Positions 1-20,700 of a stretch of 61,485 nt of DNA are shown here, piece by piece. Position 1 is the first letter of the stretch. The number at the start of each line of letters is the position of its first letter. Position numbers and translations under genes: made by a program. This DNA is from an uncultured Planctomycetaceae bacterium (GTDB lineage: Bacteria; Planctomycetota; Phycisphaerae; SM23-33): the NCBI GenBank assembly GCA_964497475.1, contig CAZCDM010000001.1, forward strand, positions 1 through 61,485. Direction: 5' to 3'. Under the pieces are notes generated by a model. It saw only the letters and a list, made by a program, of their open reading frames with translations, ran no database searches and had not been told where the DNA came from.

Positions 1-224
1 ATTTCGAGTCGTGTTTTGTGAATCCTTAACCAAAGGCGAACAATTGCGTTTTTATGGAGTTCTAATCCAATGCTTGTTCAATGTGAATATGAGTTGCGCA
101 TAGTGTCTCTCGCTGAGCATGGTCAACTGAGATATCCTGCCATGCGTTCAATCAGAACTGTGGCCGCAGCGCGTGTTGTGGCAACCCAATTCGAACCCGT
201 TGGAAAGCCTTGAAAGGAAACACC

Positions 225-596
225 ATGAGTGACACGATGGAAGAAAATGCAGTGAACCAGGACGTAGTAGAAAACCAGGCCCGCGAGCAGACCGGCCAGC
301 AGCAGGTCCGTCTTCGCATGGATGAGCGGGATATGACCACCAGCTACGCCAACGCGTTCCGCACGAACGGCACGGCTGAAGAAGTCATGCTGGACTTCGG
401 GCTGAACCTGGTGTCCCCGGCCGCCGGTCAGCAGGACCGCCCGGAGATTCTTTTCCAGGTCAAGAATCGCATCGTCATGAACTACTACTCGGCAAAGCGC
501 CTGGCCATTACGCTCGGCCAGCTGATCCGTCGTCACGAAGAGCAGTTCGGCGAGCTGGAACTGGACATGCGGAAGCGTCAACAGGCCGGCGAATAA
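225..596 (+). CDS. Small DUF3467-like protein (123 aa from ATG 225; the ORF track starts it at TTG 210)
   Basis: ORF track 210..596 (+). ATG 225 lies just downstream of AAGGAAA (214-220), so I prefer it to TTG 210. The C-terminal half (YANAFRTNGTAEEVMLDFG ... RIVMNYYSAKRLAITLGQLIRRHEEQFGEL) matches my memory of the DUF3467 (PF11950) signature. Not verified by a search. Confidence 0.75.
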   Translation: MSDTMEENAVNQDVVENQAREQTGQQQVRLRMDERDMTTSYANAFRTNGTAEEVMLDFGLNLVSPAAGQQDRPEILFQVKNRIVMNYYSAKRLAITLGQLIRRHEEQFGELELDMRKRQQAGE

Positions 597-640
597 GCAT
601 CTCATTCCATGATGCAGATTGACTTCGGGTCAGGTCCTCG

Positions 641-659
641 CGGGCTTGGCCCGTTTTTT
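641..659 (+). terminator. Possible weak rho-independent terminator after the DUF3467-like gene
   Basis: Hairpin CGGGC (641-645) - TTG - GCCCG (649-653) followed directly by TTTTTT (654-659), about 45 nt after the stop at 594-596. The stem is only 5 bp with a 3-nt loop, so support is weak. Confidence 0.35.
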
Positions 660-838
660 CTCCCTTCGTGCGATACGTCACACGACTCATCTTAGCATGA
701 TCTTAACCTCGCATTAGCACCTAAATTGCAAAAGCGATTTATGATGGTTGTCCGCGACTGGCCGAGCTGAGCAAAGAGAATTTTCGCTTGATCGTCCGGA
801 AGCACCCCCCACCCCCCACGCCGCAGGCTGAGAGAACG

Positions 839-2734
839 ATGCAAGAAACAAGCTACATCTCGTCGTCCCCTGGTTTGAAGTCTGCCCCGTCGGCCTCGAA
901 GCCGGGCGCATTGATCCGCCGGCTGATTCAGTTCGAGGGCTCGGCCGAGTCATATGTGCCTGTCTGGCTGGAAGCGCAGTGCTCCTTTGCCGGCGCGTCT
1001 GCCGGTGCGCTGCTCAGCAGCGATGGCAGTGGTCAACTCGTGCCCCTTGCAATGCACCCGGCGCCGCAGGGGGAGAATCCTTCGCTGCCGGAGTGGCTGG
1101 CCCGCGGGGCGGCCGTGGCTTTGCAGGCGGCCCATACCGGCCAGGCTCGGCGGATTCCGCTGCCCGGGCGTGACGAGGATTTCTATGCCCAGGCCGGCCA
1201 GCGCTGTGCTATCATCGTGCCGATCTATTCCGAGCTGGGCGCATCTGGCGCGGGCGTTTACGACGTTACCGCCGCCGGGCCCGAGGAACTCAATCTCGCA
1301 CAAGAACGACTCGAACTGACCAGCACGTTTCCCTCGCGGCATGCGATGCGGTTGAAGCTTGACCGCCGCCAGCAGGACCTCGAAGCCCTCCAGGCCGCGA
1401 TGGAAACTCTCACCGCCCTGAACTCCTGCAAGCGGTTCCAGGCTGCCGCGATGGCCCTTTGCAATGAGCTGACTGCCCGGTTCCACAGCGAGCATGTCGG
1501 CCTGGGGATGCTTCGCGGGCGGTACGTGCATCTCAAAACGCTTAGCCATACTGAAGAATTCAGCCGCAAGATGAAAATCGTCCAGCACATGGAAGCGGCG
1601 ATGGAGGAGTGCTTCGACCAGGACCTTGAAATCGTTTATCCCCCGGACGACGAGGCGACCTACACCAGCCGGGCCACGCGAGACCTCTCGAAGAAAGAAG
1701 GTCCGTCCTCGATTCTTTCATTGCCTATCCGCTACGAGAAGGAGGTGGTCGGCGTATTGACGCTTACGCGTTCGGCCGAGGATCCCTGGCAGCATAACGA
1801 GATGGAAACCCTCCGGCTAACCTGCGACCTGATGGCCGCCCGGTTGGTCGAAATATATCAGCGTGACCGCTGGTTTGGCGCCCGCCTGGCCAACTGGATA
1901 AAAAAGGGCCTTGCGATGGTGCTCAGCCCTCGCCATACCTGGGCGAAGCTTGCCGCCATTGGGATTGTGGGGTTTGTACTGTTTGCATTGTTGGTGAAAG
2001 GGGAGGATTATGTCCAGTCATCATTCTCGCTGGATGCGACGCAGCGGCAAGTGGTAGCGGCCGGGCTGAACACCCGGCTGGACAGTATCCGCGCGGAGGT
2101 CGGCCAAGAGGTCAAGGCAGGGCAGACCCTGGCCACGCTGGACGTGATCGATCTTGAACTCGAGCGGGGCCGACTCCAAGCCGAGCGGCTTGGCTACCTC
2201 ACCGAGGCCGCCATTGCCCGCAAGGAGGGCGAGCACGCCAAGGCAGACATCGCCAACGCCAAGGCTGCCCAAGCCCAGGCTGAGCTGAAGCAGATCGCAT
2301 ACAAAATTTCCCTTGGCAAGTTACAAGCTCCGCTTGACGGAACGATCGTCACGGGCGACCTGCATCGCAGGCTTAACTCCGATGTGCAACGGGGGGATGT
2401 TCTTTACGAGATCGCGCCACTGCAGTCGCTTCGGGCGGATTTGCTCGTGCCAGAGGATCGCATTGTGGATGTCCGCCTTGGGATGAAGGGCGAGCTGGCA
2501 ACGGCCTCGTATCCGGATCGCAAGGTCGGCTTCACCGTCGAGCGGATCAATCCCGAAGCCGAGGCCATCAATCAGGACAACGTCTTCCGCGTGCGTGTTC
2601 GCCTGGATTTGATCCAGCCCTGGATGCGGCCTGGCATGGAGGGCGTGGCGCGGATTCATGTCGGTCGCAGCCCCTATGCCTGGCTGTGGACACGCCGGCT
2701 GGTCAACTGGGTTCGCATGAAGCTCTGGATTTGA
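839..2734 (+). CDS. GAF-domain / HlyD-family membrane-fusion (periplasmic adaptor) protein, 631 aa from ATG 839
   Basis: ORF track 788..2734 (TTG start); the first in-frame ATG is 839. The central region is GAF-like (ILSLPIRYEKEVVGVLTLTRS ... ETLRLTCDLMAARL). There is one TM helix (WAKLAAIGIVGFVLFALLV, about 1941-2000). A HlyD module follows: lipoyl-like half motifs (VKAGQTLATLD ... LQAPLDGTIVTGD), an Ala/Gln/Lys-rich coiled-coil hairpin and a beta-barrel tail (VFRVRVRLD). Confidence 0.8.
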   Translation: MQETSYISSSPGLKSAPSASKPGALIRRLIQFEGSAESYVPVWLEAQCSFAGASAGALLSSDGSGQLVPLAMHPAPQGENPSLPEWLARGAAVALQAAHTGQARRIPLPGRDEDFYAQAGQRCAIIVPIYSELGASGAGVYDVTAAGPEELNLAQERLELTSTFPSRHAMRLKLDRRQQDLEALQAAMETLTALNSCKRFQAAAMALCNELTARFHSEHVGLGMLRGRYVHLKTLSHTEEFSRKMKIVQHMEAAMEECFDQDLEIVYPPDDEATYTSRATRDLSKKEGPSSILSLPIRYEKEVVGVLTLTRSAEDPWQHNEMETLRLTCDLMAARLVEIYQRDRWFGARLANWIKKGLAMVLSPRHTWAKLAAIGIVGFVLFALLVKGEDYVQSSFSLDATQRQVVAAGLNTRLDSIRAEVGQEVKAGQTLATLDVIDLELERGRLQAERLGYLTEAAIARKEGEHAKADIANAKAAQAQAELKQIAYKISLGKLQAPLDGTIVTGDLHRRLNSDVQRGDVLYEIAPLQSLRADLLVPEDRIVDVRLGMKGELATASYPDRKVGFTVERINPEAEAINQDNVFRVRVRLDLIQPWMRPGMEGVARIHVGRSPYAWLWTRRLVNWVRMKLWI

Positions 2735-2740
2735 TCGATC

Positions 2741-4924
2741 ATGGTTGATCGCCCGACATTCAGCGAGTCGTGGTATCGCGTGGCGCATCTACGCCCTCGG
2801 CTTCGACCGACGGTGCATTTTTATCGGCAGCATTATCGCGGGCGAATGTGGCATGTGCTGGAGGATCGCTCCTCCCATCGCTATCTTCGACTGGACTGGC
2901 CGGCCTATCGATTCGTCTCGCTGTTGGACGGGCAGCGAACCCTCGAACAGGCCTGGCAGCTCTGCATCGAAGAACTCGGCGACGAGGCCAACACGCAGGG
3001 CGAAGTCATCCAGCAGCTCGGCCAGCTCTACGCATACAACCTCCTGCAGAGCGATACCGTGCCCGATATCGACGGCATGTTCAAACGCCGCCAGAAACGT
3101 GTCCATCGCGAGGTACGCAGCCAGCTTGCCAGCCTGATGTTCTTCCGCCTGCCCCTGTGGGATCCCGATGCCTTTCTCGACGCGATTCTTCCGCTGTTCG
3201 GCTGGCTGTGGTCGTGGCTTGGGCTTGTGCTCTGGCTGGGGCTTGTCTCGACCGGGCTGTACTACGTCATCGACCAGTGGGGCCACCTGTCAGACAAAAC
3301 ACAGTCCATTCTCGATCCGGAGAACATTCCTCTGCTGTATCTGTCTTTCGCGATCGTCAAGGTGTTGCACGAGTTCGGCCATGCCTTGTCCTGCAAAAAA
3401 TTCGGTCAGCAGGAAGGCTCCGGCGGCGAGGTACACACCATGGGCGTGATGCTTCTGGTTCTCACTCCCATGCCCTATGTCGATACATCCAGTGCCTGGG
3501 CGCTGCGAAACAAGTGGCATCGCCTGACGATCGGTGCTAGCGGCATGCTCGTTGAGTTGGGCGTAGCGGCCGTTGCGGCCATCATCTGGGCGCACACCTC
3601 TCAGTTCACCGTGGTGCGGGGCATTTGCTATAACGTCATGTTCATCGCCAGTGTCTCGACTCTGCTGTTCAACGCCAACCCGCTGCTTCGCTATGACGGG
3701 TACTACGTCATCTCTGATCTGCTGGAGATTCCCAACTTTGCCCAGCGCAGTCGGGAGTACGTCATTTACCGCGTCAAGCGATATGCATGGGGTCTCAAAC
3801 GCCTGGCCTGCCCGGCTCACTCCTTCGGCGAGCGGGTCTGGATGAGTTTCTACGGCCCGGCGTCGGTGGTCTATCGCGTGGTGATCCTCGTTACGATTCT
3901 GCTGTTTCTCACCGACCGGCTGCCCAAGCCGCTGCTGGTCATCGGTATCCTGATGATGTTTGTCAGCATGTTCATGTGGCTTTGCATGCCCCTGCTGAAA
4001 TTCCTCAAATACCTCTTCACCAGCCCCGAGCTGGCACGCGTTCGAACTCGGGCGATGCTCTCGACTGGTCTGTTTGCCAGTGGAGTGATCTACCTGATCG
4101 CCGGGGTCGAATTGCCCAACCGGACACGCCTGGCGGGCATTACTGAGCCGGTGGAGTCCACCGTGATCTATGCAGCCGAGGACGGCTTCCTCGACGACTG
4201 CCTCCCGCATGGCCAGATCGTCGACCAGCCGGGATCGGTTCTGGTGGATTGCCGCAACCAGGAACTCGCCTTGCAGGCTCAGCAGATTCAGCTGCAGCAG
4301 GAGATGGTTGACTGCCAGATTCGCCTCCACCGAGAGCAACGCAAACCGGCCCTGGTCCAGGCCTTCCTCCATCAGAAGCAGGTTCTCGACCGGCAACGAA
4401 ACAGGCTGAACGAACGAACTGAGCGCCTGGACCGCCGGGCGGACCATGAAGGCATTTGGCTGGCACGCAAGCTTGATGCATCACGCGGCGCACTGCTGCC
4501 TCGCGGCGCGGAACTCGGTCAGTTGATCCGCCTCGAGAATATCCGAGTGCGCGTAGCGGCCTCCCAGGACGTCGCTGCGCAGCTCGTCGCCCAGGCCCGG
4601 CCCGACGTGGCAATCCGTCTCAAGGGGCGACCCGACGTTGAATTCGCCGGGCGGATTGAGAAGATTCTTCCCGCCGGGCACAAGCAGCTGCCCGCCCAGG
4701 CCTTGTCCTATGGAGCCGGCGGATCGATTCGAACCAACCCCCAGAAGCCCGAAGAGGCAGCCGAGAACCTCTTCGAGGTCTGGATTACCGTGACCGCCCC
4801 ACCGGCCGAACACCTGCTCAGCAAGCAGCGGGTCATCGTCCGGTTCGATCTTGGTGATCAGTCGCTTACGAGGCAGATGTGGCTGAAGGCGAGACGGATT
4901 TTCCAGCGACGGTTCGGGGTGTAA
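2741..4924 (+). CDS. M50 (site-2-protease-like) zinc metalloprotease fused to a C-terminal HlyD-like periplasmic module; N-terminus PqqD/RRE-like
   Basis: ATG 2741 is 6 nt after the previous stop. The HEFGH zinc motif (3368-3382) sits in a polytopic membrane region. The first ~100 aa have a three-strand plus three-helix pattern (HFYRQHYRGRMWHVLEDRSSHRYLRLD / YRFVSLLDGQRTLEQAWQLCIEELG ... VIQQLGQLYAYNLL) reminiscent of PqqD. The last ~250 aa are HlyD-like (coiled coil QELALQAQQIQLQQEMVDCQIRLHREQ, then a beta-barrel). Confidence 0.85.
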   Translation: MVDRPTFSESWYRVAHLRPRLRPTVHFYRQHYRGRMWHVLEDRSSHRYLRLDWPAYRFVSLLDGQRTLEQAWQLCIEELGDEANTQGEVIQQLGQLYAYNLLQSDTVPDIDGMFKRRQKRVHREVRSQLASLMFFRLPLWDPDAFLDAILPLFGWLWSWLGLVLWLGLVSTGLYYVIDQWGHLSDKTQSILDPENIPLLYLSFAIVKVLHEFGHALSCKKFGQQEGSGGEVHTMGVMLLVLTPMPYVDTSSAWALRNKWHRLTIGASGMLVELGVAAVAAIIWAHTSQFTVVRGICYNVMFIASVSTLLFNANPLLRYDGYYVISDLLEIPNFAQRSREYVIYRVKRYAWGLKRLACPAHSFGERVWMSFYGPASVVYRVVILVTILLFLTDRLPKPLLVIGILMMFVSMFMWLCMPLLKFLKYLFTSPELARVRTRAMLSTGLFASGVIYLIAGVELPNRTRLAGITEPVESTVIYAAEDGFLDDCLPHGQIVDQPGSVLVDCRNQELALQAQQIQLQQEMVDCQIRLHREQRKPALVQAFLHQKQVLDRQRNRLNERTERLDRRADHEGIWLARKLDASRGALLPRGAELGQLIRLENIRVRVAASQDVAAQLVAQARPDVAIRLKGRPDVEFAGRIEKILPAGHKQLPAQALSYGAGGSIRTNPQKPEEAAENLFEVWITVTAPPAEHLLSKQRVIVRFDLGDQSLTRQMWLKARRIFQRRFGV

Positions 4925-4925
4925 G

Positions 4926-6911
4926 ATGGCATCCTCCGCCAGCGCCATTTGGAGAACCCTCAGCTACGACACTCGGCAGGAACCGCTGCCCAAGGGCATT
5001 GATGCGATCTGGGATCGACTGGATGGCTTGGCACGGAGGTTGATCCGCAGGCGGCAGAGCTGTCTGGTCCGGGCCGATAAGGTCCTCCGGCTGGAAAAGG
5101 AGTTCACCGAACTCACCGATGCACGTCTACACGAGGTCTGCGAGGATCTGCGTGATCGGTTCCTCCGGGGCCGGGAGACCGCCGGCGATATGATCCGCGC
5201 CTTCGCGATGATTCGTGAGGTGGCCTTCCGGCAGTTGGGGATGCGACATTACCGGGTGCAGCTGGCAGGGGGGTTCTCCCTGGTCGATGGCTGCATTACG
5301 GAGATGGCCACCGGGGAGGGCAAGACCCTCACGGCTACGCTGGCTGCGGTTGTGGCTGGCTGGCGAGGTCGGGGCTGTCACGTCATGACCGTCAACGATT
5401 ACCTGGCCGAACGCGACGCGGAGGACATGTCGCCAGTCTACAAGGCCTGCGGGTTGAGTGTGGCTTTCATCGGCGGCGAAACGCCTCAGCCCCAACGTCG
5501 CGAAGGATATCTCGCCGATGTGACCTACCTGACGAACAAGGAGGTTGCCGCCGACTTTCTTCGCGATCGACTGGCGCTGGGCTCGATGCGTTCGCTCTCC
5601 TCGGCCTTGCTGGCCAAGCGGGTCCACGGCAGGGGCTCGGGCACGGACAAACTTGTCCAGCGCGGGCTGCACTATGCGATTGTCGACGAGGCCGACTCCG
5701 TCCTTATCGACGAGGCCGTCACCCCCTTGATCATCTCAGGGCAGGCATCCAACCCCGTCCAAGTCGAAGCATTTGAGCAGGCCGCCCATTGGGCGACCCG
5801 GCTGGATCCCGGGCGACACTATCGGGTCAACCGAAAATATCACGAGGTGACGCTCACCTCGGCTGGACAGGAAGTCCTCCGCCGCTGGGGCCAGGCCGCC
5901 GGGGGCATCTGGACCGGGTCTCGCCGGCGCGAAGAACTGATGATCCAGGCCATCACCGCCCGCGAGCTGTACGTCCGAGGCCAGCAGTACATCGTTCAGG
6001 ACGACGCGGTGGTGATCGTGGATGAATTTACCGGCCGACTCATGCCCGACCGTGAATGGCGCGACGGTCTCCACCAGGCCGTCAGCGCCAAGGAAGGCCT
6101 GGAAATCGAACCACCCAAGGCGACTTATGCCCGCATCAGCTTCCAGCGGTTTTTCCGCATGTACCGCCAACTCAGCGGAATGACGGGAACCGGTCGGGAA
6201 GCCATAAGCGAATTTTGGCAGATTTACCATCTGCCCATCGTGGAAATTCCCACCAACCGCCCATGCCTCCGGAAACATCTGCCAGACAGAGTCTTCCCGA
6301 CCCAGCGGGCAAAGTACCAGGCCATTGCCGAGGAAATTCAGACGGTTCACCAGACGCAGCGGCCGATTCTGGTCGGTACCCGAAACGTCAAGGATAGTGA
6401 ATATCTCAGCAACCTGTTGCATGAAAAAGGTCTCGAACATGAAGTGCTCAATGCGGTTTACCACAAAGAAGAGGCACAGATCGTCTCCCGGGCGGGGCAA
6501 CCTGGGGCGGTCACCGTGGCGACCAACATGGCCGGGCGGGGGACTGACATCAAGCTTGGGCGGGGCATCAAAGATATAGGCGGCCTGCACGTAGTTGCGT
6601 GCGAACGGCACGAGTCACCTCGCGTCGACCGGCAGCTCTACGGCCGGGCCGGGCGGCAGGGTGATCCTGGGAGCTGTCAGGCCTGGGTCAGCCTCGAGGA
6701 CGATCTCGTTCAGCGACATGCCGCGAAGCAGGTTCGCATGATGCAGCAATTCCATCGTGGCGGAGAAAAGTCCATCGCATCAGCCGTTACGAGGCAGTTG
6801 TGGGATCAGGCGCAGTCCAGAGCGACCCGGATGGCATTGCGACAACGAAAGTCTGTTCTGGAAACCGATAACTGGCTTGACGAATATCTCGGTTTTGCCG
6901 GTATGGAATAA
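4926..6911 (+). CDS. SecA-like DEAD-motor ATPase, C-terminally truncated paralogue (661 aa)
   Basis: ATG 4926 is 1 nt after the previous stop. SecA motor motifs occur in canonical order: Walker A MATGEGKT (5304-5327), VNDYLAERD, IVDEADSVLIDEAVTPLIISG (DEAD 5685-5696), FQRFFRMYRQLSGMTGT, VATNMAGRGTDIKLG, ERHESPRVDRQLYGRAGRQGDPG. The protein ends about 70 aa after the GRQGDPG motif. Confidence 0.9.
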   Translation: MASSASAIWRTLSYDTRQEPLPKGIDAIWDRLDGLARRLIRRRQSCLVRADKVLRLEKEFTELTDARLHEVCEDLRDRFLRGRETAGDMIRAFAMIREVAFRQLGMRHYRVQLAGGFSLVDGCITEMATGEGKTLTATLAAVVAGWRGRGCHVMTVNDYLAERDAEDMSPVYKACGLSVAFIGGETPQPQRREGYLADVTYLTNKEVAADFLRDRLALGSMRSLSSALLAKRVHGRGSGTDKLVQRGLHYAIVDEADSVLIDEAVTPLIISGQASNPVQVEAFEQAAHWATRLDPGRHYRVNRKYHEVTLTSAGQEVLRRWGQAAGGIWTGSRRREELMIQAITARELYVRGQQYIVQDDAVVIVDEFTGRLMPDREWRDGLHQAVSAKEGLEIEPPKATYARISFQRFFRMYRQLSGMTGTGREAISEFWQIYHLPIVEIPTNRPCLRKHLPDRVFPTQRAKYQAIAEEIQTVHQTQRPILVGTRNVKDSEYLSNLLHEKGLEHEVLNAVYHKEEAQIVSRAGQPGAVTVATNMAGRGTDIKLGRGIKDIGGLHVVACERHESPRVDRQLYGRAGRQGDPGSCQAWVSLEDDLVQRHAAKQVRMMQQFHRGGEKSIASAVTRQLWDQAQSRATRMALRQRKSVLETDNWLDEYLGFAGME

Positions 6912-6937
6912 TCAGCATTGGAAAGGACGTTATCAAA

Positions 6938-7945
6938 ATGAAATATCTGGTATGGGCGATACTGGTACTTTTTTTTATGCAGTATGCATCTGTTCGAGCG
7001 GATTCGAGAGAGGCTGCGTATACCGGCCTGACCCAGCCATCGAAGGAGGTCATGATTGGGTTTCTTCAGCCTGGCCGAGTAAAACAGGTTCTTGTCAAGG
7101 AAGGGCAGAGGGTCAAGGAAAAACAGGAACTGATTCATCTCGATGATTCGGTAGATCGTGTGATGCTTAAGCAATTGGAGATGCGAGCAGCCAATAATAC
7201 GCGCATTGAAGCCGCCCAAGCGGAGCTCAATCAGAAAATGGTGGATCTCAATCGTGTCGAGATGCTTCGTAAGCGGGGGGTAGCGACCGTCACGGAATTG
7301 GAGCATGCCAAGCTCAATAGAACGGTCGCTTCCTTGTCAGTCGATCTGGCAAAGTTCGAACAGAAACAGGCAGAACTGAAGCACGAGGAACTTAAGACAC
7401 AATTGGAGCAGATGGTTTTGGTCAGCCCGATTAACGGGGTTGTCGAAGCCATAGCCGTAGACAAAGGCGAACCAGTTGACCGGCTGGAAAAAGTTGTCCA
7501 TATCGTGGAGATTGATCCGTTGTGGATCAGTGTTCGGATCCCGCTTGCTGAGGCGCAGAAAATCCCTCTCGGCCGAAAGGTCGATGTTCGGTTTCCAGGC
7601 TTGGGACATAAGCAGATTCAAGGCAAGGTAGTTCATAAGCCCGCTGTCGGTGACTCAGCTAGTGGTACTCTTGAACTCCGCATCGAGGTCGCGAATCCTG
7701 ATGACAGGCCAGCCGGTCAGGAGGTCTGGGTGAGCATTCCCGATCTCAAGCCGTCGGCCCCTGCTCGCAATGTGCCAGTCAAAGCCCAAGAAGATACGCA
7801 GATGGAGAATGAGAAGGAGCAGGGGAGTCTTACTGAGGATCGGGATGAGTCCGACACGCCTGGCTTGTCCGAAATGCGCCAAGCACAGCCATGCGTTCAA
7901 GGGAAAGTGCGGGCTATTGACGAGAGTTCAAGTGCCAGCAGTTGA
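6938..7945 (+). CDS. Secreted HlyD-like (barrel-sandwich / coiled-coil / beta-barrel) adaptor protein, 335 aa
   Basis: ATG 6938 with AAGGA at 6923-6927. Signal peptide MKYLVWAILVLFFMQYASVRA. Lipoyl-like motifs (GRVKQVLVKEGQRVKEKQELIHLDD ... SPINGVVEAIAVDKGEPV) flank a coiled coil, followed by a beta-barrel (KVDVRFPG ... LELRIEVANPD) and an acidic tail. GC is clearly lower than in the three genes upstream. Confidence 0.75.
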   Translation: MKYLVWAILVLFFMQYASVRADSREAAYTGLTQPSKEVMIGFLQPGRVKQVLVKEGQRVKEKQELIHLDDSVDRVMLKQLEMRAANNTRIEAAQAELNQKMVDLNRVEMLRKRGVATVTELEHAKLNRTVASLSVDLAKFEQKQAELKHEELKTQLEQMVLVSPINGVVEAIAVDKGEPVDRLEKVVHIVEIDPLWISVRIPLAEAQKIPLGRKVDVRFPGLGHKQIQGKVVHKPAVGDSASGTLELRIEVANPDDRPAGQEVWVSIPDLKPSAPARNVPVKAQEDTQMENEKEQGSLTEDRDESDTPGLSEMRQAQPCVQGKVRAIDESSSASS

Positions 7946-8491
7946 TGTTCTATGTGAATCGCACATGGGGTTCTCAGAGTGGTGAACAGGGGGAGGTAGT
8001 TCATCATATCCGAGGATCAGATCAGAATCAGCTTCTGGAATCTTGCGAATTTTTTCTGCGTTAGCGCATTCTTTATCTGGCTGTCCGATTAATGCAGCAG
8101 CGGGAAAAAACGGGGAATCGCCCTTCTGGGAAGGGACAAAATGAAATGTCCCTGTGCATTAAATTTGAGTTTTGTAAGAGATGCGTTCAGGTCGCGCAAA
8201 GGCGAAATGCTAACGGGTCTTAACTTGAAAGCGGCTGGTATTCACTCCAGAATGTGCGCGTAGAGTACGTCTCTGGGCTTGTCATTCGGAGCCGAGCCAC
8301 CGTCAGTGACGCATTCGTAATGAAATGGAATTCGGAATAGAGCGCAGTATGCCGCTGAACTCTCCAATAAATCTTGGTCTCGTGTTTATCGCCTTTTTCG
8401 GGGCACCTTTCAGGTATGCCCTTTCCTTATTGCGCAGATCGAACGGACTGGACAGGTCTTCATCTGCGTTCATTCCACGAGGAGTGAAATC
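7946..8491 (+). promoter_or_regulatory. AT-richer 546-bp spacer; probable promoter/5' UTR of the giant gene, with Shine-Dalgarno GGAG at 8481-8484
   Basis: This is the only long non-coding gap between + strand genes. GGAG at 8481-8484 lies 7 nt before ATG 8492. There is an inverted repeat AGGGACA (8132-8138) / TGTCCCT (8147-8153). No promoter consensus can be assigned confidently for this lineage. Confidence 0.4.
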
Positions 8492-8728
8492 ATGTCTTTG
8501 ACCTCGAAAGCGTACCAACGTCTTTGCCACATGTATCGCGTTGTTCTGATGAAGATGCGTGTGAAGAACTTCATGCAGTTTGCGTATCACTCGCCATTGG
8601 CGGGCAAACGCAAGGGCAGGGGCGGTCTGCGCCGACGGCGAGGTGGCGAGGACGGGGCCACTGCGCGCGGAGGGGGTGTTGCGCCATCCAAGCGTATCGA
8701 GATGCTCGAGCCGCGCGTCATGCTTTCC
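8492..8728 (+). other. N-terminal leader: Arg/Gly-rich stretch followed by the LEPRVMLS motif (8705-8728)
   Basis: Translation: MSLTSKAYQRLCHMYRVVLMKMRVKNFMQFAYHSPLAGKRKGRGGLRRRRGGEDGATARGGGVAPSKRIEMLEPRVMLSGTPL. There is no classical hydrophobic signal peptide. LE(P/D)RxLLS after a basic stretch is a motif I recognise from the N-termini of large Planctomycetota (and some Verrucomicrobiota) extracellular proteins. Confidence 0.6.
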
Positions 8729-11700
8729 GGTACCCCGCTGGGTGATCCGGACGATGAGGAAGGTTTTTCCCAGCAGGCCCATCAGCAGATTGACGAGGGG
8801 CTTGGCAAGCTGGCTGCTCTGGGCGAGATGATTGACACTTCGACGGACTTCGCCCAGGACATCATGGTGTTTCAGGGGGCAGAGGGCCTTGGCGAGCTGT
8901 TCGATCTTGGCGATGTGGTGGCCGAGCAGTTGCGTGCTCCGCTGGCGAGTTTCAATTCGATTTCCGATATTGACGGCGATGGGCTGGACGTGGGCGATTA
9001 CATCTCGGCCCTGGAGGCCTTGGCAACGCCGGCCGACTACAGCGATGATACCGGGCCGCTTGGCTTTGCGGTGGATGTTCTGGCTGGCGGATACTACGCC
9101 GACAGCGACCAGCTCGATTTTGAAATATCGATCAATGCCGAACGGCTTAGTGAGATTACTCTGGCCATGGGCGATGAACTATCGGCCTTTGGCATTACGG
9201 CCGGCGCGGGCGAGGCGTTCGAGTTGGCCACTCAGTTGGAGTTCAATTTCGCCTTCGGCCTGATGAATGTCAATTCCACCCCGAGCTTCTACATCCGTCA
9301 GATGGGGTTGGCCTTTTCGATGGATGCCACCTCGCCGGAGATTTCCCAGCAGGTTCAGATCGCGCACCCCTCCGGTGGCGTGGCCCTGGCGACGACAGCC
9401 ACGGGACAGGTCAGCCTGCTCGATGCGGGGGCGACGGTCGCCTTTGCCGATTCGCTCCTGGCCGATGGCATGGTGGACTCGGCGGAGCTGGACTCCATGG
9501 GGGCCAGCGACCTGCTGATTGAGATGACCGGTTCCCTGGAGGCTTCGCTGGACGTATCGGCCACCGTGCCGGGCTTCAGCGACCTGGGTGGCGGGACGCT
9601 TCGTCTCCGTAGCGATTCGCTCTTTGGCGGCGAGGCATCGGAGGTGAATTTCGACGTGGCCGTCAGTGACGAACTGGCCGGCCATCTTGTCGACGTGTTC
9701 TCGCAGATTCACGGCCTGGGCACGACGCTGGCCGGTGATGCAGACCTGACGGCTGCGATTCCAGGCGTGGGGATCAGCCTCAATGAGTTGCTTGGCGAAG
9801 GTGGTATTGATGGGCTGCTGGGGCGGGTCTCTGACGCGGCAGGACAGTACCTGGCAGGGGCTGAGGACATCAGCATCTCCGAGTTGGTGGAGTATATCGA
9901 GGATCAGTTCAATGCCGCCGAGTTTGACGTTGACCTTGGCGGGCTGGACGTTCAGGGCGGCTACGATAACAGTCAGCAGACGTTGTTCATTGACCTGTCG
10001 ATGGCGCCGCAGTACACCGAGGCGTTCCAGTTGGACTTCGCCTCGATTGCCGACTCGATCGCCGCTTCGCTGCGGACCGATGCCACCGTCGATGTGACCG
10101 TCACCGGCGCGATGGACCTGCGGATCAATGTGGACCTCAGTGATCCCTACGTCACGGCCGAGGATGTGTGGTTCGCTGCAGGCCAGGGCAATGATATTCT
10201 GGACCTCTCGGCGGTGATCGAGAGTTACGATCTGCTGTTTGACGCGAGTTTTGCGGGCCTGGGAGTGACGGCTGGCACGGCGGCCAATCCGGCTTCGATG
10301 GTGGCGACGATGTCCTTGGCGGCGGGGCTGATCGACAATGATGAAGATGATCGCGTGAGCCTGGCCGAGCTGCTTTCGGGCGGTTCGGGCATTGCAGCCA
10401 GTCCGTCCGGAAGTGTCGATGTGACCCTGCCGTTTGGCGTTACGCTTGGCGGGTATGATTTCACCGACGGCGGAACGGTCCTGCCGGTGATTGAAATTTC
10501 CGACTCGGCTCTGTTTGACGGCACGGCTGCGACGATTACGACCAGCAACCTCGATGCGATGGTACTGGCGATCGTCGACGACCTGGCCAGCCCGGCCACG
10601 ACGGCCCTGCAGCAGTTGGATACGCTGGCCGGTCGGCTGGAGTCGATGCTTTCTCAGGCAGGTCTGAGCGACGCGCTGACGGCGGTGATTCCGGGCGTGG
10701 GGCTCTCGCTCAACGACCTCTTCGGCCAGGGCGAAACCGGCCTGAGCGACTTCCTGGATATCGGCCAGCATATTCGCGATTACCTGGCTGGATTCGACGC
10801 GGGAAGTTGGCAGATCGGCGATGCGCTGCCGACTCTGCCGGAACTGGTCGAGTACCTCAACCTCAACTGGATGACCACGCTGCCGGGCGAGGGCCATAGC
10901 CTGTCCTGGGAGCTTACGGCAACGGGGTTGGCGGTGAATTTCGTGTCGCAGTCGAATTTCAGCCGACAGGTGGCGTTTGATCTTGGCGCCGAGGCCGAGG
11001 CGCTGGGCCTGACGGCCGAGGGAGAACTGGGTTTCGATTTCCAGACCGATATTGACTTGGGCTTGGCGATTGACTGGTCGACCGGTGCGGTGACGGTCGA
11101 CGTCAATACCTTCGACTTTGACGCATCGGCCGACATGGCGAACTTCCTGGCTGGCGGCCGGGTTGGCCCGCTGGCGATTTCTCTGGGGCGCGACGGCCAG
11201 TACGGCTCGGCGCGGATTGACATTGCAGGGGCGGTTACCTGGGATGACACCAACGAGACCCTCGCGGTGGTGATGGACACGGCCAGCGAGGCCAATCGGG
11301 TTGACGTAACGCTGCCGGTTTTCGCTACGCTGAGCGGCACGTCGCTGGCCGATGAGGCCAATCCGCCGGCGATCACGCTGGCCGGCGAGCTGTTTCCGGC
11401 CGTGCCCGAAGACGGCGTGAGCCTAGACGTGAGCGGGCTTGGCGACTTGCTGGACTTCGGCGAGTTGAGCTTCAGCGATGTGGCTCGGGCCCTGAATGAG
11501 GGCGTGGATTTTCTTCAGAACGCCATCGAGCGGATGCCGTTCTACCGCGAGGTTCTTCCGCTGATCAACCAGAGCCCGGCCGAGATTTTCACATTCATTG
11601 ATTCGCTGCAGGACGCGGTAGACGATGCCCTGGCCGATCCGCAGGCCACGTTGCAGTCGATCGAGTCGGCCATTGAGTCGGCCCTGGGGATCGTGGATGA

Positions 11701-17700: not shown

Positions 17701-20700
17701 CGGCGGGGCGGTCACTGTCGAGTACGACGAGTGGACTCAGACGTATTACGGCATTACGAAAATCGTCGCCGATGGTGGCGAAGGCGATGACGTCTTTGAC
17801 GCCTCGGGCCTGCGGGATGTTCGCCTGGAGATCGATGGCGGGGCGGGCAACGACCGGATCATCGCCGGTGCGGCGGCCTCGGCCGTTCTGACCGGCGGCG
17901 CCGGAGATGACGTCCTGGACGCCTCACGGTCCTGGTATGCCTATCTCCACGGTGGCTCGGGCAGAGATACCCTTATCGGTGGCTATGGGAATGACGACCT
18001 GATCGGAGGGACGGGTGACGATTCGATCACCGGCAATGCCGGCGACGATCGCATCACCGGTGGCGCCGGGGCCGATACCATCGCCGGCGGCCAGGGCGAT
18101 GACACCTACCTCTTCGGCGATGCCTGGGGTAGTGATCGCTACCGCGACACCGAAGGCACGAGCACGCTGGACTACTCGGGCGTCACGGGCGACCTGACGA
18201 TCACGCTCAACCAGCGTGGGGCGGAAATCATCCATGGCGAGTCGCGTGAGGTGGTTACCCCGGCCGGTGATGTGCAGGACATGATCACCGATGCTTTGCT
18301 GACACCCAACCCGTACAGCCGCCCGCAGATTCCCATGCAGGAAGTCCAGGGCCTGGTGATTCACTATGTGGGGAATCCCGGCTCCAGCGCGATGGACAAC
18401 CGCAACTACTTCGAGTCGCTGAAAAACGGCGCCGGGTATGCCTCCAGTCAGTACATCGTCGGGCTTGAGGGCGAAATCATCCGCTGTGTACCGGAAGACG
18501 AAGTGGCCTATCACGCCGGAGGGGCAAACTATACCGACCTGGCACGCGATCGGTTCTGGGATGCCAATCGCGGGCGGATTTATCCGCACGACAAGGTCAT
18601 CGGCATCGAGACCTGCCACCCCGATTCGACGGGACAGTTCACGCAGGTTACGGAAGATGCTCTCGTGGCGCTGTCGGCCGATATCGTCCGCCGCTACGGG
18701 CTGAGCCGCGATGAGGTCCTGCGGCATCATGATGTGACCGGCAAGGACTGCCCCAAGTATCACGTCGATCATCCCGAAGCCTGGGAAGCGCTGGTCGACC
18801 GGATCATGGCTGCTGCGGCCCAGACGCCGGTCGAATCGGGCAGCGAGACCGTTGTGACCACGCAGCTCGGTGCGGTGCAGACCGGCCGCGGCGACGTTGG
18901 AAATATTATCACCCGCTTCGGCGATTTTGATCTGAACATCGGTCGTCCGGTCAGTGCCTTCGGTGCCGATGAAACGACCCAGCGGCTGGCCGAGGGGCTC
19001 GAAGAACTCAGCCAGTATGCACGCGACATGAAGGACTCGCTGCTGGAAGACATCGCCGGTCAGATCGGCCAGCAGATTCCCGGCACGGGCCTGAGCGTCG
19101 ATGAACTGCTCGACATGCGGGCGTATCTCGGCCTGGGCGATTACATCCAGGCCTACCTGTGGGGCTATACCCACCCCAGCGAGCCGCTGCCCGACAGCGA
19201 ACTGGACATCCCCATCGGTACCGATGCCGAGCCGACGGTTGGCGGGTTGGTCGACTACCTCGAGAGTTACTGGTTCCCGGCCCTGCTGGGAGGCCAGGCC
19301 CAGGGAAGCCCGATGACCCTTTCGTTCTCCAAGACCGACGGCGTGGTGACCGGGCTGGCGATGGATTTTGACGGCGAGGCCACCTACACACGCGACATTC
19401 TGGTTTCGCTTGGCTCCGACGCCGAAGCGCTGGGGCTGCAGTTGGCTGCCGACCAGACCGCCACCGTCGAAATCACCGCCGGGCTGGACTTCTCGATGAG
19501 CCTGGACTGGTCCAGCGAGACACCCGCCTGGAGCTATCAGGTCGACGAGTTGACCTTCGACGCACAGGCCGACCTAGACGGTGTGATCCTGGACGGAAGG
19601 GTCCACGATCTGGCGGTCACGACCGGCCGCGCCGGGGCCTCGGCCGGTACGTTCGACCTGACGCTTGATGCGGATATCACCCATGCCGCCGATTCGCTGA
19701 GCCTGACTCACAGCGGCACGGTGGCCCTGATCATGCCGATCTACGCCGAAATCGCCGGCACGCATGTCAACACCGCCCCGGCGAGCCTCTCGATTACAGG
19801 CGATATCGACGCCGGGACGAGCAGCTTCAACGCCATGAACTTTGAAACCTTCGACGCTTTTGCCGACGTCGAGGTCGAGACGATCATCCAGCGTCTCGAA
19901 ACGCTGGGCCGATGGGTCGAGGGCCTGGCTGGGCCCGACATGGGCGCGGTGGAAATCCCCTCGCTGGGCCTGACCGTGGGTGAACTCTTCCAGCTTGAAG
20001 ACAGCTGGGCCGCAGCCTATTCGCAACTGGACCTCAGTGGCGCGACAACCATTCAGGATGTCCTGGCTGCGATCGAATCGGCCGGGCTCGTTGCCAATGG
20101 CCAGGCCATCAGCTATGACGCCATCGAGCGAACCATTACCGTTCCGATGAGCTTCGACCTGAGCCTCGCAGACGTCCAGGAATTGCTGGTTAATACCGGC
20201 GGTCACTACGACGCAGAGTTCGAGGCGATGCTGCTCGATGCAATCGCCGCTCTGGCCGGCTCGGCCCGTGCGGAGGTCACCTTCGTTATCGATGCTGACG
20301 GCCCCGGCGCGACCGAAGGCTTTACCACCTCGGCTCAGATGCACATTACCGCTTCGGCCTCGGACATCCACTTCCCAGCCCGACTGGGCGACCTGGAAGT
20401 CAGCGTCGGCACCGAAGCATCCGGCACGGCTGAGATCGATCTGACGATGACCGCTTCGATGATCGAAGCGAGTGAAACCTTCGACCTGACCACCGGCGGA
20501 ACGATGAATGTCTACCTGCCTGTCTATGCGACCCTGGCCGGGACGAACATCAATCCGACACACACGGCAGGGCTGAGGCTGACGGGAACGGCCTTCGGCG
20601 CCGGTGGCATGGCCGTGACGACCGAGAATTTCGACAACCTCGTGGCCTTCGAGACGCTGACAGCCCAGCAGTGGCTCGACCGCATCGAACAGGCGGCCCG

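Follow-up and report, generated by a model that had tools for sequence, protein, structure and literature searches.

A SecA-paralogue, M50 protease and HlyD adaptor cassette genetically linked to giant LEPR-XLL proteins in Planctomycetota and other diderm bacteria

How the largest bacterial proteins, such as the 20,000- to 36,000-residue symbiosis proteins of Chlorochromatium, are exported is an open question. It arises again in a 61,485-nt stretch of DNA from an uncultured Planctomycetaceae bacterium (GenBank assembly GCA_964497475.1, contig CAZCDM010000001.1, positions 1 to 61,485; hereafter the window), where a gene for a protein of more than 17,664 residues lies directly downstream of four genes encoding a GAF-HlyD adaptor, an RRE-M50-HlyD fusion, a shortened SecA paralogue and a short HlyD adaptor (hereafter the cassette). 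The giant protein begins with an LEPR-XLL leader, and genes with this leader occur beside cassettes of this kind in at least five phyla. We consider it highly probable that the cassette is functionally dedicated to LEPR-XLL proteins. With moderate confidence, we favor the reading that it is a dedicated, TolC-coupled exporter and processor of these proteins, in which the RRE domain would read the leader, the M50 protease would cleave it, and the wingless SecA paralogue would power transport. The cassette and the giant gene comprise the following features.

839-2734, + strand: GAF-HlyD adaptor, 631 aa, with GAF and HlyD_D23/HlyD_3 matches.
2741-4924, + strand: RRE(PqqD)-M50-HlyD fusion, 727 aa, from domain scans and homologue alignment.
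2768-3040, + strand: RRE/PqqD-like winged-helix domain of the fusion (aa 10-100), predicted to be cytoplasmic, from PqqD matches, an AlphaFold2 (AF2) model and Foldseek.
3176-4108, + strand: M50/site-2 protease (S2P)-like intramembrane metalloprotease core of the fusion, transmembrane region aa ~146-456, with HEFGH at 3368-3382 and NANPLLRYDG at 3671-3700.
4112-4924, + strand: periplasmic HlyD/membrane-fusion domain of the fusion (aa 458-727), with an RND_mfp match at aa 458-645.
4926-6911, + strand: wingless SecA paralogue, 661 aa, comprising NBD1, the preprotein cross-linking domain (PPXD), NBD2 and the start of the scaffold helix, with SecA_DEAD, SecA_PP_bind and P-loop_SecA matches.
6938-7945, + strand: short HlyD-type adaptor, 335 aa, with an N-terminal signal or anchor sequence (MKYLVWAILVLFFMQYASVRA), from domain scans.
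8492-8743, + strand: N-terminal leader of the giant, an Arg/Lys-rich N-region followed by LEPR-XLL; start codon uncertain.
8492-61483, + strand: giant putative cargo gene, incomplete, >17,664 aa, running off the window and the contig.
18002-18757, + strand: segment of the giant with RTX nonapeptide repeats at aa 3171-3205 and, at aa 3283-3422, a peptidoglycan amidase domain (Amidase_2).

The four cassette genes occupy + strand open reading frames (ORFs) at 839(788)-2734, 2741-4924, 4926-6911 and 6938-7945. The intergenic gaps of 6, 1 and 26 nt agree with the close packing reported in the initial annotation of this DNA, and Pfam and NCBIfam scans likewise agree with its count of three HlyD-type modules, one M50 protease and one SecA-type protein. 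That annotation named the parts correctly and overlooked the RRE domain, a DUF3467 gene farther upstream and the significance of the LEPR leader. Of its interpretation, the idea of an envelope-spanning apparatus tied to the giant gene stands, while the ideas that the apparatus is undescribed and free of TolC do not. Gene calls were compared with those of JGI metagenome 3300012009 (contig Ga0153773_1000277). A C-rich tract at 805-817 (CCCCCCACCCCCC) lies just 5' of the GAF-HlyD start codon, within the alternative frame that opens at TTG-788.

Is the motor-like protein of the cassette an ordinary SecA? Its motifs are intact (Walker A GEGKT at aa 130, DEAD at aa 254, and motif VI GRAGRQG at aa 573), and the preprotein cross-linking domain PF01043 is matched at 5e-26. 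The protein aligns only to residues 29-606 of Bacillus subtilis SecA, and the C-terminal third is absent, as expected from the earlier description of a truncated paralogue. Because the alignment stops at residue 606, the protein lacks the helical wing domain, the two-helix finger and the C-terminal tail of the established SecA structure. The two-helix finger of SecA inserts into SecY. The best score is 650.7 bits against a cut-off of 814 (PRK12904), and every other SecA/SecA2 equivalog model is likewise matched below its own cut-off; the protein combines a DEAD-box motor and a preprotein cross-linking domain without the full-length architecture of a canonical SecA or SecA2. NCBIfam release 20 has no family-specific models for the cassette proteins. 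RefSeq names wingless SecA proteins "prepilin peptidase" or "DEAD/DEAH box helicase" (in our locus numbering, L204:14204-16120, L203:23059-25083 and L202:22139-24124), and SecA_DEAD, PPXD and P-loop_SecA are all matched by Pfam in these three proteins. The M50 fusion appears in RefSeq as "PqqD family protein" or "biotin/lipoyl-binding protein".

A locus built from these four gene families, in this order, was described in silico by Kamneva, Poudel & Ward (2015, PLoS One, PMC4452313), who named no cargo and reported no experiments. Their "secondary SecA_DEAD domain proteins", which lost the wing/scaffold domain, have Peptidase_M50-like, GAF-HlyD and HlyD neighbors, sometimes an OEP gene and never an ABC transporter (PMC4452313). 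They proposed that the SecA_DEAD protein is the ATPase and the M50 protein the membrane pore, suggested a regulatory role for the GAF protein, and listed one Chlorobi species among the carriers (PMC4452313). The window has a SecA_DEAD protein without wing/scaffold, a membrane protein that joins a weak M50 match to HlyD, a GAF-HlyD protein and a further HlyD/biotin-lipoyl protein, with no ABC gene. Judged by these domains, the cassette is a member of the published module, which is found in matching phyla. The apparatus is therefore not undescribed, as had been thought, and the accompanying statement that no characterized system of this kind is known holds literally, since the module is known from computation alone. 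The 2015 study contained no cargo, RRE/PqqD domain, DUF3467 gene or signal, whereas the link to LEPR-XLL is added here. We found no follow-up of that locus, and no paper connecting the LEPR leader to the cassette, in the searchable literature; to our knowledge, this link was previously unreported.

The protease subunit is where recognition of a leader is suggested. Homologue alignments, which begin at residue 2 of the 727-aa form, fit the start at 2741; the JGI gene starts at 2846, 35 codons late (692 aa), and loses part of the RRE domain. The N-terminal ~100 aa match Pfam PqqD in 17 of 20 M50-HlyD homologues, and an AF2 model of this region (pLDDT ~90 over aa 10-100) has three strands followed by three helices (b-b-b-a-a-a). 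The best Foldseek matches among small proteins are lasso-peptide B1 RREs solved with leader peptides (TM scores of 0.71 for 6jx3_B and 0.67-0.70 for TbiB1, 5v1u/5v1v), followed by other RRE-bearing enzymes of ribosomally synthesized and post-translationally modified peptide (RiPP) pathways. The modeled fold is thus that of an RRE/PqqD winged helix, and leader binding is predicted. A family profile run against PDB sequences did not see this domain, which fold comparison did, and returned only EmrA (4tko), over the adaptor part.

The zinc-binding motifs HExxH and NxxPxxxxDG both lie within transmembrane segments, as HEFGH at aa 210 (H210/E211/H214) and NANPLLRYDG at aa 311 (N311-x2-P-x4-D319-G), and are invariant in 20 homologues. 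The Peptidase_M50 match of the window protein is weak (17.6 bits, below the Pfam gathering threshold of 27.2), and 18 of the 20 homologues match at E<=0.01; the protein is a divergent relative. The NCBIfam model for the daptide protease (daptide_HExxH, NF041824) matches aa 19-417 at 1e-45 and that for YydH/LiaK (NF058609) matches at 7e-8, both below the equivalog cut-offs, which shows homology of the N-terminal 417 aa to RiPP leader peptidases. HlyD_D23 is matched in 11 of the 20 homologues. In the GAF-HlyD protein, the GAF domain (aa 256-336), a single transmembrane segment (aa 368-386) and the membrane-fusion domain (aa 397-610) follow one another, and the region containing the GAF domain is predicted to be cytoplasmic and the membrane-fusion domain periplasmic.

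How widely is this arrangement kept? A search with the M50-HlyD profile returned 5,412 family representatives (50%-identity clusters) at E<=1e-30, with matches in at least 599 species-level genomes. From these we examined 82 cassette-seeded loci (80 fetched and two from look-ups) in Planctomycetota, Verrucomicrobiota, Kiritimatiellae, Desulfobacterota, Nitrospira, Methylomirabilia, Rokubacteria, Myxococcales, Betaproteobacteria and Gammaproteobacteria. Among the 64 with enough sequence, the SecA-like gene is directly 3' of M50-HlyD in 59 (92%) and GAF-HlyD directly 5' in 60 (94%); the short HlyD is present in 50 of all 82. This order bears out an apparatus that is conserved and ABC-less, with the envelope-spanning parts that the initial annotation had supposed. 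One variant short adaptor (L092:7767-9278) is longer, at 503 aa, and ends in SPOR peptidoglycan-binding repeats.

Neither an ATP-binding cassette (ABC) ATPase nor a TolC-like gene was found at positions 1-8300 of the window, so the earlier statement about the region upstream of the giant holds there; of the components of a type I system, only HlyD-family adaptors (three modules) are seen in that region. ORFs resembling ABC ATPases occur in just 2 of the 82 cassette-seeded loci and in none of 113 loci seeded independently with LEPR genes (see below). TolC-like genes are adjacent in 19 of the 82 and 9 of the 113, and they stand at the operon end in Methylosinus and Thalassospira. These neighbors in relatives and annotated operons are at odds with the notion of a TolC-free system.

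What does the giant protein look like? The + strand frame 8324-61483 contains no stop codon, and within it the JGI gene call starts at 8492 (>17,688 aa) and is ended by the contig end. The gene is missing from the ORF list because its ORF runs off the window, and a run of 250- to 1,600-aa ORFs on the - strand at 9179-61312 consists of antisense shadows of this frame. With its RTX repeats, the frame agrees with the earlier claim that the cassette is directly upstream of, and co-oriented with, a giant RTX-bearing gene. The motif IEMLEPRVML (8696-8725) is the sole match to the LEPR motif in six frames of the window, and the LEPR-XLL model NF012209 is matched at 21.6 bits (cut-off 17) at 8693-8743, aa 124-140 of the frame from 8324. 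No transmembrane segment is predicted in the first 400 aa, and the last 5,000 visible residues have no Pfam match; the Pfam scan covered the giant apart from the middle ~7,600 aa. The Amidase_2 domain (N-acetylmuramoyl-L-alanine amidase) suggests a cell-wall-degrading activity, as proposed for the giants of predatory Omnitrophota. Cassette-like domains inside the giant, as in Omnitrophota, were sought in the visible 17,664 aa and none were found.

The leaders themselves share a distinctive composition. Across 89 non-redundant examples, the N-region preceding the motif is basic (net charge +7) with a median length of 28 aa, and the 30 aa after the motif carry a net charge of -5. A hydrophobic stretch of Sec-signal strength (12-residue window, Kyte-Doolittle mean >=2.0) occurs in 1 of the 89; since only this one reaches the threshold, the leaders lack a Sec/Tat hydrophobic core, and the idea that they are Sec or Tat signals was rejected. 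Within the first 1,000 aa of 47 LEPR proteins, DUF4347 follows the leader in 30, and cadherin-like, Big_9, beta-helix, RTX, subtilase and sialidase domains also occur, which marks these proteins as extracellular adhesins and enzymes. DUF4347 is absent from the first 5,000 aa of the giant in the window; elsewhere it has conserved SHG...YGC...TGADVAAS...GGDW motifs (for example L095:10476-13475). Some planctomycete LEPR proteins (L012, L020 and L034) have an extra conserved stretch directly after the motif (LLLTT..GGExFxFTD..G..V.V.V.G), which may be a small beta-rich domain.

Related giants are known from other work. Chlorobium chlorochromatii has giants of 36,806 and 20,647 aa with LEPRxLL N-termini that "lack known signals", in a co-expression cluster with a horizontally acquired secA and flanked by SapC and TolC genes, with sapC upstream of the giant; the authors drew no connection among the leader, the secA and SapC/TolC (bioRxiv 10.64898/2026.03.19.712371). 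In Omnitrophota and actinobacterial giants, SecA_DEAD and PPXD without wing/scaffold are fused into the protein (West-Roberts et al., bioRxiv 10.1101/2023.11.21.568195), a fusion-type hint of the same link. A Neptuniibacter giant was also sought and only fragments were recovered; follow-up showed frameshift-fragmented giants, and a GAF gene lies downstream in Vibrio ishigakensis.

Proteases of the M50/S2P group classically act in regulated intramembrane proteolysis, and GAF is a sensor domain. The cassette could thus be imagined as a signaling device in which GAF sensing and a site-2-type protease control the neighboring surface protein and the HlyD parts are structural only, which would suit the regulatory role suggested for the GAF protein by Kamneva et al. 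(PMC4452313). We consider this very unlikely. An S2P would find no transmembrane segment to cleave in the LEPR leaders, a peptide or leader substrate is indicated by the RRE domain, the loci contain no conserved anti-sigma or sigma factor gene, and three membrane-fusion proteins, TolC and a SecA-type motor would be left without a role.

Is the association of leader and cassette more than adjacency, on which the initial annotation had to rely? For the cassette-seeded loci, we scanned all six frames with a strict motif, [LFIMV][EQ]x[LMI]E[PDEA]Rx[LMVI][LMF]. It was found in 10 ORFs in 1.38 million residues, always within 75 aa of the upstream end of the ORF, and a small hidden Markov model separates LEPR ORFs (>=26 bits) from all others (<=13 bits). 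LEPR-motif ORFs are present in 11 of the 82 loci, most often as the immediate neighbor; they are large and belong to Planctomycetota, Nitrospira, Verrucomicrobia and Kiritimatiellae. Among genes adjacent to the cassette, 6 of 121 carry the motif, compared with 2 of 371 non-adjacent genes (odds ratio 9.6, p=0.004, with a crude gene model), whereas genes of at least 1,000 aa are not enriched (8 of 121 against 19 of 371, p=0.5). The signal of linkage is carried by the motif, not by gene size.

The search was then reversed. A degenerate DNA pattern for ExLEPRx[LMI][LMI][ST]ADLP, with no cassette information in the query, was matched to metagenome contigs and gave 113 stretches (89 non-redundant clusters); in 51 of the 113, cassette genes lie 5' of the LEPR ORF. 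After dereplication, 34 of the 56 clusters with 2 kb or more of upstream sequence (61%) have a cassette gene; where 5 kb or more is available, core cassette genes are present in 13 of 21 and the SecA-like gene in 11 of 21. In 40 of the 51, the short HlyD, on the same strand, is the nearest upstream gene (median distance to the motif, 408 nt), which is also the arrangement of the window. On these contigs, the cassette proteins most resemble gamma- and betaproteobacterial, Nitrospira and Methylomirabilia types, so the link extends beyond the Planctomycetes-Verrucomicrobia-Chlamydiae (PVC) phyla.

Full-length homologues were also found by tblastn of PLSDB on alphaproteobacterial plasmids and chromids. 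In all eight annotated loci inspected, a giant ORF is directly upstream of, and co-oriented with, the cassette, and LEPR-XLL is present in all six N-termini checked. The gene orders are as follows.

Pontibrevibacter: giant of 10,603 aa, named "LEPR-XLL domain-containing protein" by PGAP; then DUF3467, GAF-membrane-fusion protein (MFP), "PqqD family", SecA-like ("DEAD/DEAH box helicase") and MFP.
Pseudosulfitobacter: giant of 12,918 aa, LEPR-XLL by PGAP; then HlyD, S2P, SapC, SecA-like ("prepilin peptidase") and MFP.
Thalassospira: giant of 4,033 aa, LEPR-XLL by PGAP; then DUF3467, HlyD, M50-MFP, MFP and TolC, with no SecA-like gene.
Methylosinus: giant of 8,847 aa, N-terminus FDTLEPRVLLNADV; then DUF3467, MFP, "PqqD family", SecA-like, MFP and TolC.
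M. ciceri: giant of 10,518 aa, N-terminus HFEALEPRLLLSADF; then DUF3467, MFP, HlyD, M50-HlyD and SecA-like.
Alisedimentitalea: giant of 8,148 aa, with VEQLEPRLLLAADF in frame just 5' of a mis-called start; then HlyD, peptidase M50 and SecA.
Two further loci: giants of >2,246 and >2,317 aa in unannotated open frames whose N-termini were not seen; then the cassette.

In Pontibrevibacter, the giant and DUF3467, DUF3467 and GAF-MFP, and the M50-MFP ("PqqD family") and SecA-like genes overlap by 4 nt, and the other junctions are short gaps or a 1-nt overlap. The Alisedimentitalea gene is annotated as "calcium-binding protein", with its start placed too far 3'; the VEQLEPRLLLAADF leader is in frame just ahead of that start (L208:525-600, NZ_CP123586.1). 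SapC-family genes (PF07277, 1e-72) recur in these loci, one inside the Pseudosulfitobacter operon (L203:22245-23066) and one divergent from the Alisedimentitalea giant gene (L208:858-1501).

The tie is thus conserved in both directions, in cassette-seeded loci, LEPR-seeded loci and annotated genomes, and covers at least five phyla. The neighborhood check proposed with the initial annotation preserved both the linkage of the four genes (59-60 of 64) and that to LEPR genes (34 of 56). These data bear directly on the possibility that the substrate of the cassette is a different one, for example a small ribosomal peptide (RiPP or bacteriocin) or a small molecule, and that the cassette adjoins giant genes through co-transfer on mobile DNA. 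Among curated families, RiPP leader peptidases are nearest to the protease, RRE domains are a hallmark of RiPP pathways, HlyD adaptors also serve in drug and metal efflux, and most planctomycete cassettes have no adjoining LEPR gene. The loci, however, contain no conserved gene for a RiPP precursor or modifying enzyme; the cassette is just upstream in 61% of independently seeded LEPR genes, and the giant belongs to the same transcriptional string in all eight annotated operons, with the overlap between giant and DUF3467 in Pontibrevibacter. Hitch-hiking is not expected to give a pattern that holds across at least five phyla. Export of an unrelated substrate appears extremely unlikely, and pure signaling and unrelated peptide export both fit the data poorly.

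If the cassette serves LEPR-XLL proteins, how might it act? The cargo carries no Sec-type signal, and its leader consists of the basic N-region, the motif [FLIV]-E-x-L-E-P-R-x-L-L-S and the acidic linker. The leader would be bound by the cytoplasmic RRE/PqqD domain of M50-HlyD. The wingless SecA, having kept the DEAD motor and preprotein clamp and lost the SecY-docking parts, may thread the unfolded chain using ATP through an inner-membrane conduit built around the transmembrane domain of M50 and the transmembrane anchors of the adaptors. GAF-HlyD, M50-HlyD and the short HlyD would bridge the periplasm to a TolC-like channel, so that both membranes are crossed in one step. The M50 active site would remove the leader, and the GAF domain may gate or regulate the machine. 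With an N-terminal signal, export could begin before a chain of 17,000-36,000 residues is complete.

A conventional type I ABC system encoded elsewhere might instead export the giants C-terminus-first, with the cassette only recognizing and cleaving the late-emerging N-terminus and so controlling retention or release. Such a role would resemble the control of LapA by LapG and LapD: GAF would sense, and the SecA-like ATPase would hold or unfold an N-terminal plug. RTX repeats inside the giant of the window would suit this, as would a Vibrio LEPR-XLL giant with C-terminal RTX and serralysin-like domains (PMC10868602) and the many ABC type I systems in the C. chlorochromatii genome (bioRxiv 10.64898/2026.03.19.712371). 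In one locus (L086:5877-10574), a gene for a PAS-GGDEF-EAL protein and a TolC-like (OEP) gene lie beside an LEPR/DUF4347/cadherin gene, with no cassette in 10 kb; this neighborhood hints at cyclic di-GMP (c-di-GMP) control and would be in keeping with such a scheme. ABC ATPase genes are nearly absent from the 195 loci, however, where three adaptors and often a TolC are encoded; three adaptors with TolC form a complete conduit, beyond the needs of a processing accessory. The SecA-like protein also retains its preprotein clamp and motor, and a predicted cytoplasmic RRE with an extreme N-terminal leader is typical of signals read before export. We regard C-terminus-first export with late processing as rather unlikely.

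Several observations nevertheless weigh against a dedicated exporter. RTX blocks near the C-terminus in 4 of 10 cargo proteins resemble those of classical type I substrates and fit C-terminus-first ABC export from elsewhere. Since the contig ends inside the giant gene, an ABC/TolC pair could also lie downstream. In six LEPR-linked operons (L089, L092, L107, L136, L164 and Thalassospira, L206), M50-HlyD and the short HlyD have no SecA-like gene between them, so that the motor could be dispensable or come from another locus; such operons would also suit C-terminus-first export. In the SecA-less variant, the order is GAF-HlyD, M50-HlyD, HlyD, LEPR gene, and in L136 the upstream genes are unrelated (Fic, methyltransferase). 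Most Planctomycetota cassettes do not adjoin an LEPR gene (11 of 82-83 loci do), probably because many LEPR genes in those genomes are unlinked. A profile search with the LEPR leader returned only four short N-terminal fragments, and two LEPR N-termini looked up singly had no cassette in their short flanking sequence. The model assigns no role to DUF3467 and no ligand to the GAF domain, and we know of no M50 domain that acts as a protein-conducting channel. Finally, each step of the mechanism, including the binding partners, the cleavage, the motor role of SecA and the route and direction of export, is inferred from domains and gene neighborhood.

Several known systems share features with the cassette. 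Type I secretion (HlyB-HlyD-TolC) shares the membrane-fusion adaptors, a TolC-type channel (encoded beside the cassette in some relatives) and large, repeat-rich, often RTX-containing cargo without a Sec signal, and export probably crosses both membranes in one step in both. The cassette differs in having no ABC transporter, three adaptors rather than one, a SecA-paralogue ATPase, and a conserved signal that is N-terminal rather than C-terminal. The peptidase-containing ABC transporters (PCATs) of double-glycine-leader bacteriocins follow the logic proposed here, in that a protease integral to the exporter recognizes and removes an N-terminal leader; they combine a C39 cysteine protease with an ABC transporter, whereas the cassette has an M50 protease with RRE, a SecA-like motor and cargo of up to tens of thousands of residues. 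In Gram-positive bacteria, the accessory Sec system (SecA2-SecY2-Asp), which serves serine-rich repeat adhesins, likewise places a dedicated SecA paralogue beside a very large adhesin with an unusual N-terminal signal. In contrast to that system, the cassette has no SecY2/Asp and no two-helix finger, scores below SecA2 cut-offs, resides in diderm hosts, and would work with adaptors and TolC.

The RiPP leader peptidases and the RRE fold shared with lasso B1/PqqD proteins both imply leader recognition and cleavage by M50-HlyD, but the latter is fused to a periplasmic adaptor and its proposed substrates are giant proteins, not short peptides. In the Omnitrophota and Actinobacteria giants, a wingless SecA module proposed to act in their own export (bioRxiv 10.1101/2023.11.21.568195) is fused inside the giant, whereas in the window it is a separate 661-aa protein. 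In the LapA-LapG-LapD system, too, a dedicated protease controlled by a sensor domain acts on the N-terminus of a giant RTX adhesin. There, the protease (LapG) is a periplasmic cysteine protease, the sensor (LapD) is a receptor for c-di-GMP, and the ABC system LapEBC carries out export; the cassette has no member of these families.

Two further features precede the cassette.

225-596, + strand: gene for a DUF3467 protein of 123 aa, an accessory conserved in the cluster, from a PF11950 match on the JGI gene call.
626-653, + strand: terminator-like hairpin of 12 pairs followed by a T-run, 3' of the DUF3467 gene, from a consensus scan only.

Homologues of DUF3467 adjoin the cassette in 27 of the 82 loci and also occur in annotated operons. 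No transmembrane segment is predicted in the protein, and its profile has no match among PDB sequences. A SecB-like chaperone was considered and is unsupported (hhalign probability of 0.5% against Escherichia coli SecB, and no PDB match); a single-sequence AF2 model was poor (pLDDT 63, all-helical) and was not used. Given the strong terminator-like hairpin, DUF3467 may be transcribed apart from the four-gene string in the window. The same consensus scan found no comparable site between the short HlyD gene and the giant gene.

The association described here connects LEPR-XLL, a short and readily recognized N-terminal motif, with one particular machine that is conserved and genetically compact. 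It turns a ten-year-old in silico locus into a testable hypothesis on a possible new secretion route, and assigns a substrate class to more than 5,000 uncharacterized protein clusters. Systematic mis-annotation of the SecA-like protein and the M50 fusion is flagged at the same time. The cassette is found in culturable bacteria, among them Methylobacterium extorquens, Ruegeria pomeroyi, Mesorhizobium ciceri, Bordetella avium and Thalassospira. More broadly, and here we are tentative, LEPR-XLL may be the targeting signal of a distinct and widespread diderm secretion pathway, in which the wingless SecA would replace the ABC transporter, the RRE-M50-adaptor protein would read and remove the leader, and three adaptors with TolC would form the conduit. 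If this is true, the pathway would export proteins N-terminus-first, possibly during translation, over a size range from 4,000 to more than 36,000 residues; it would include the Chlorochromatium symbiosis giants and represent a new numbered type of secretion system with a defined signal.

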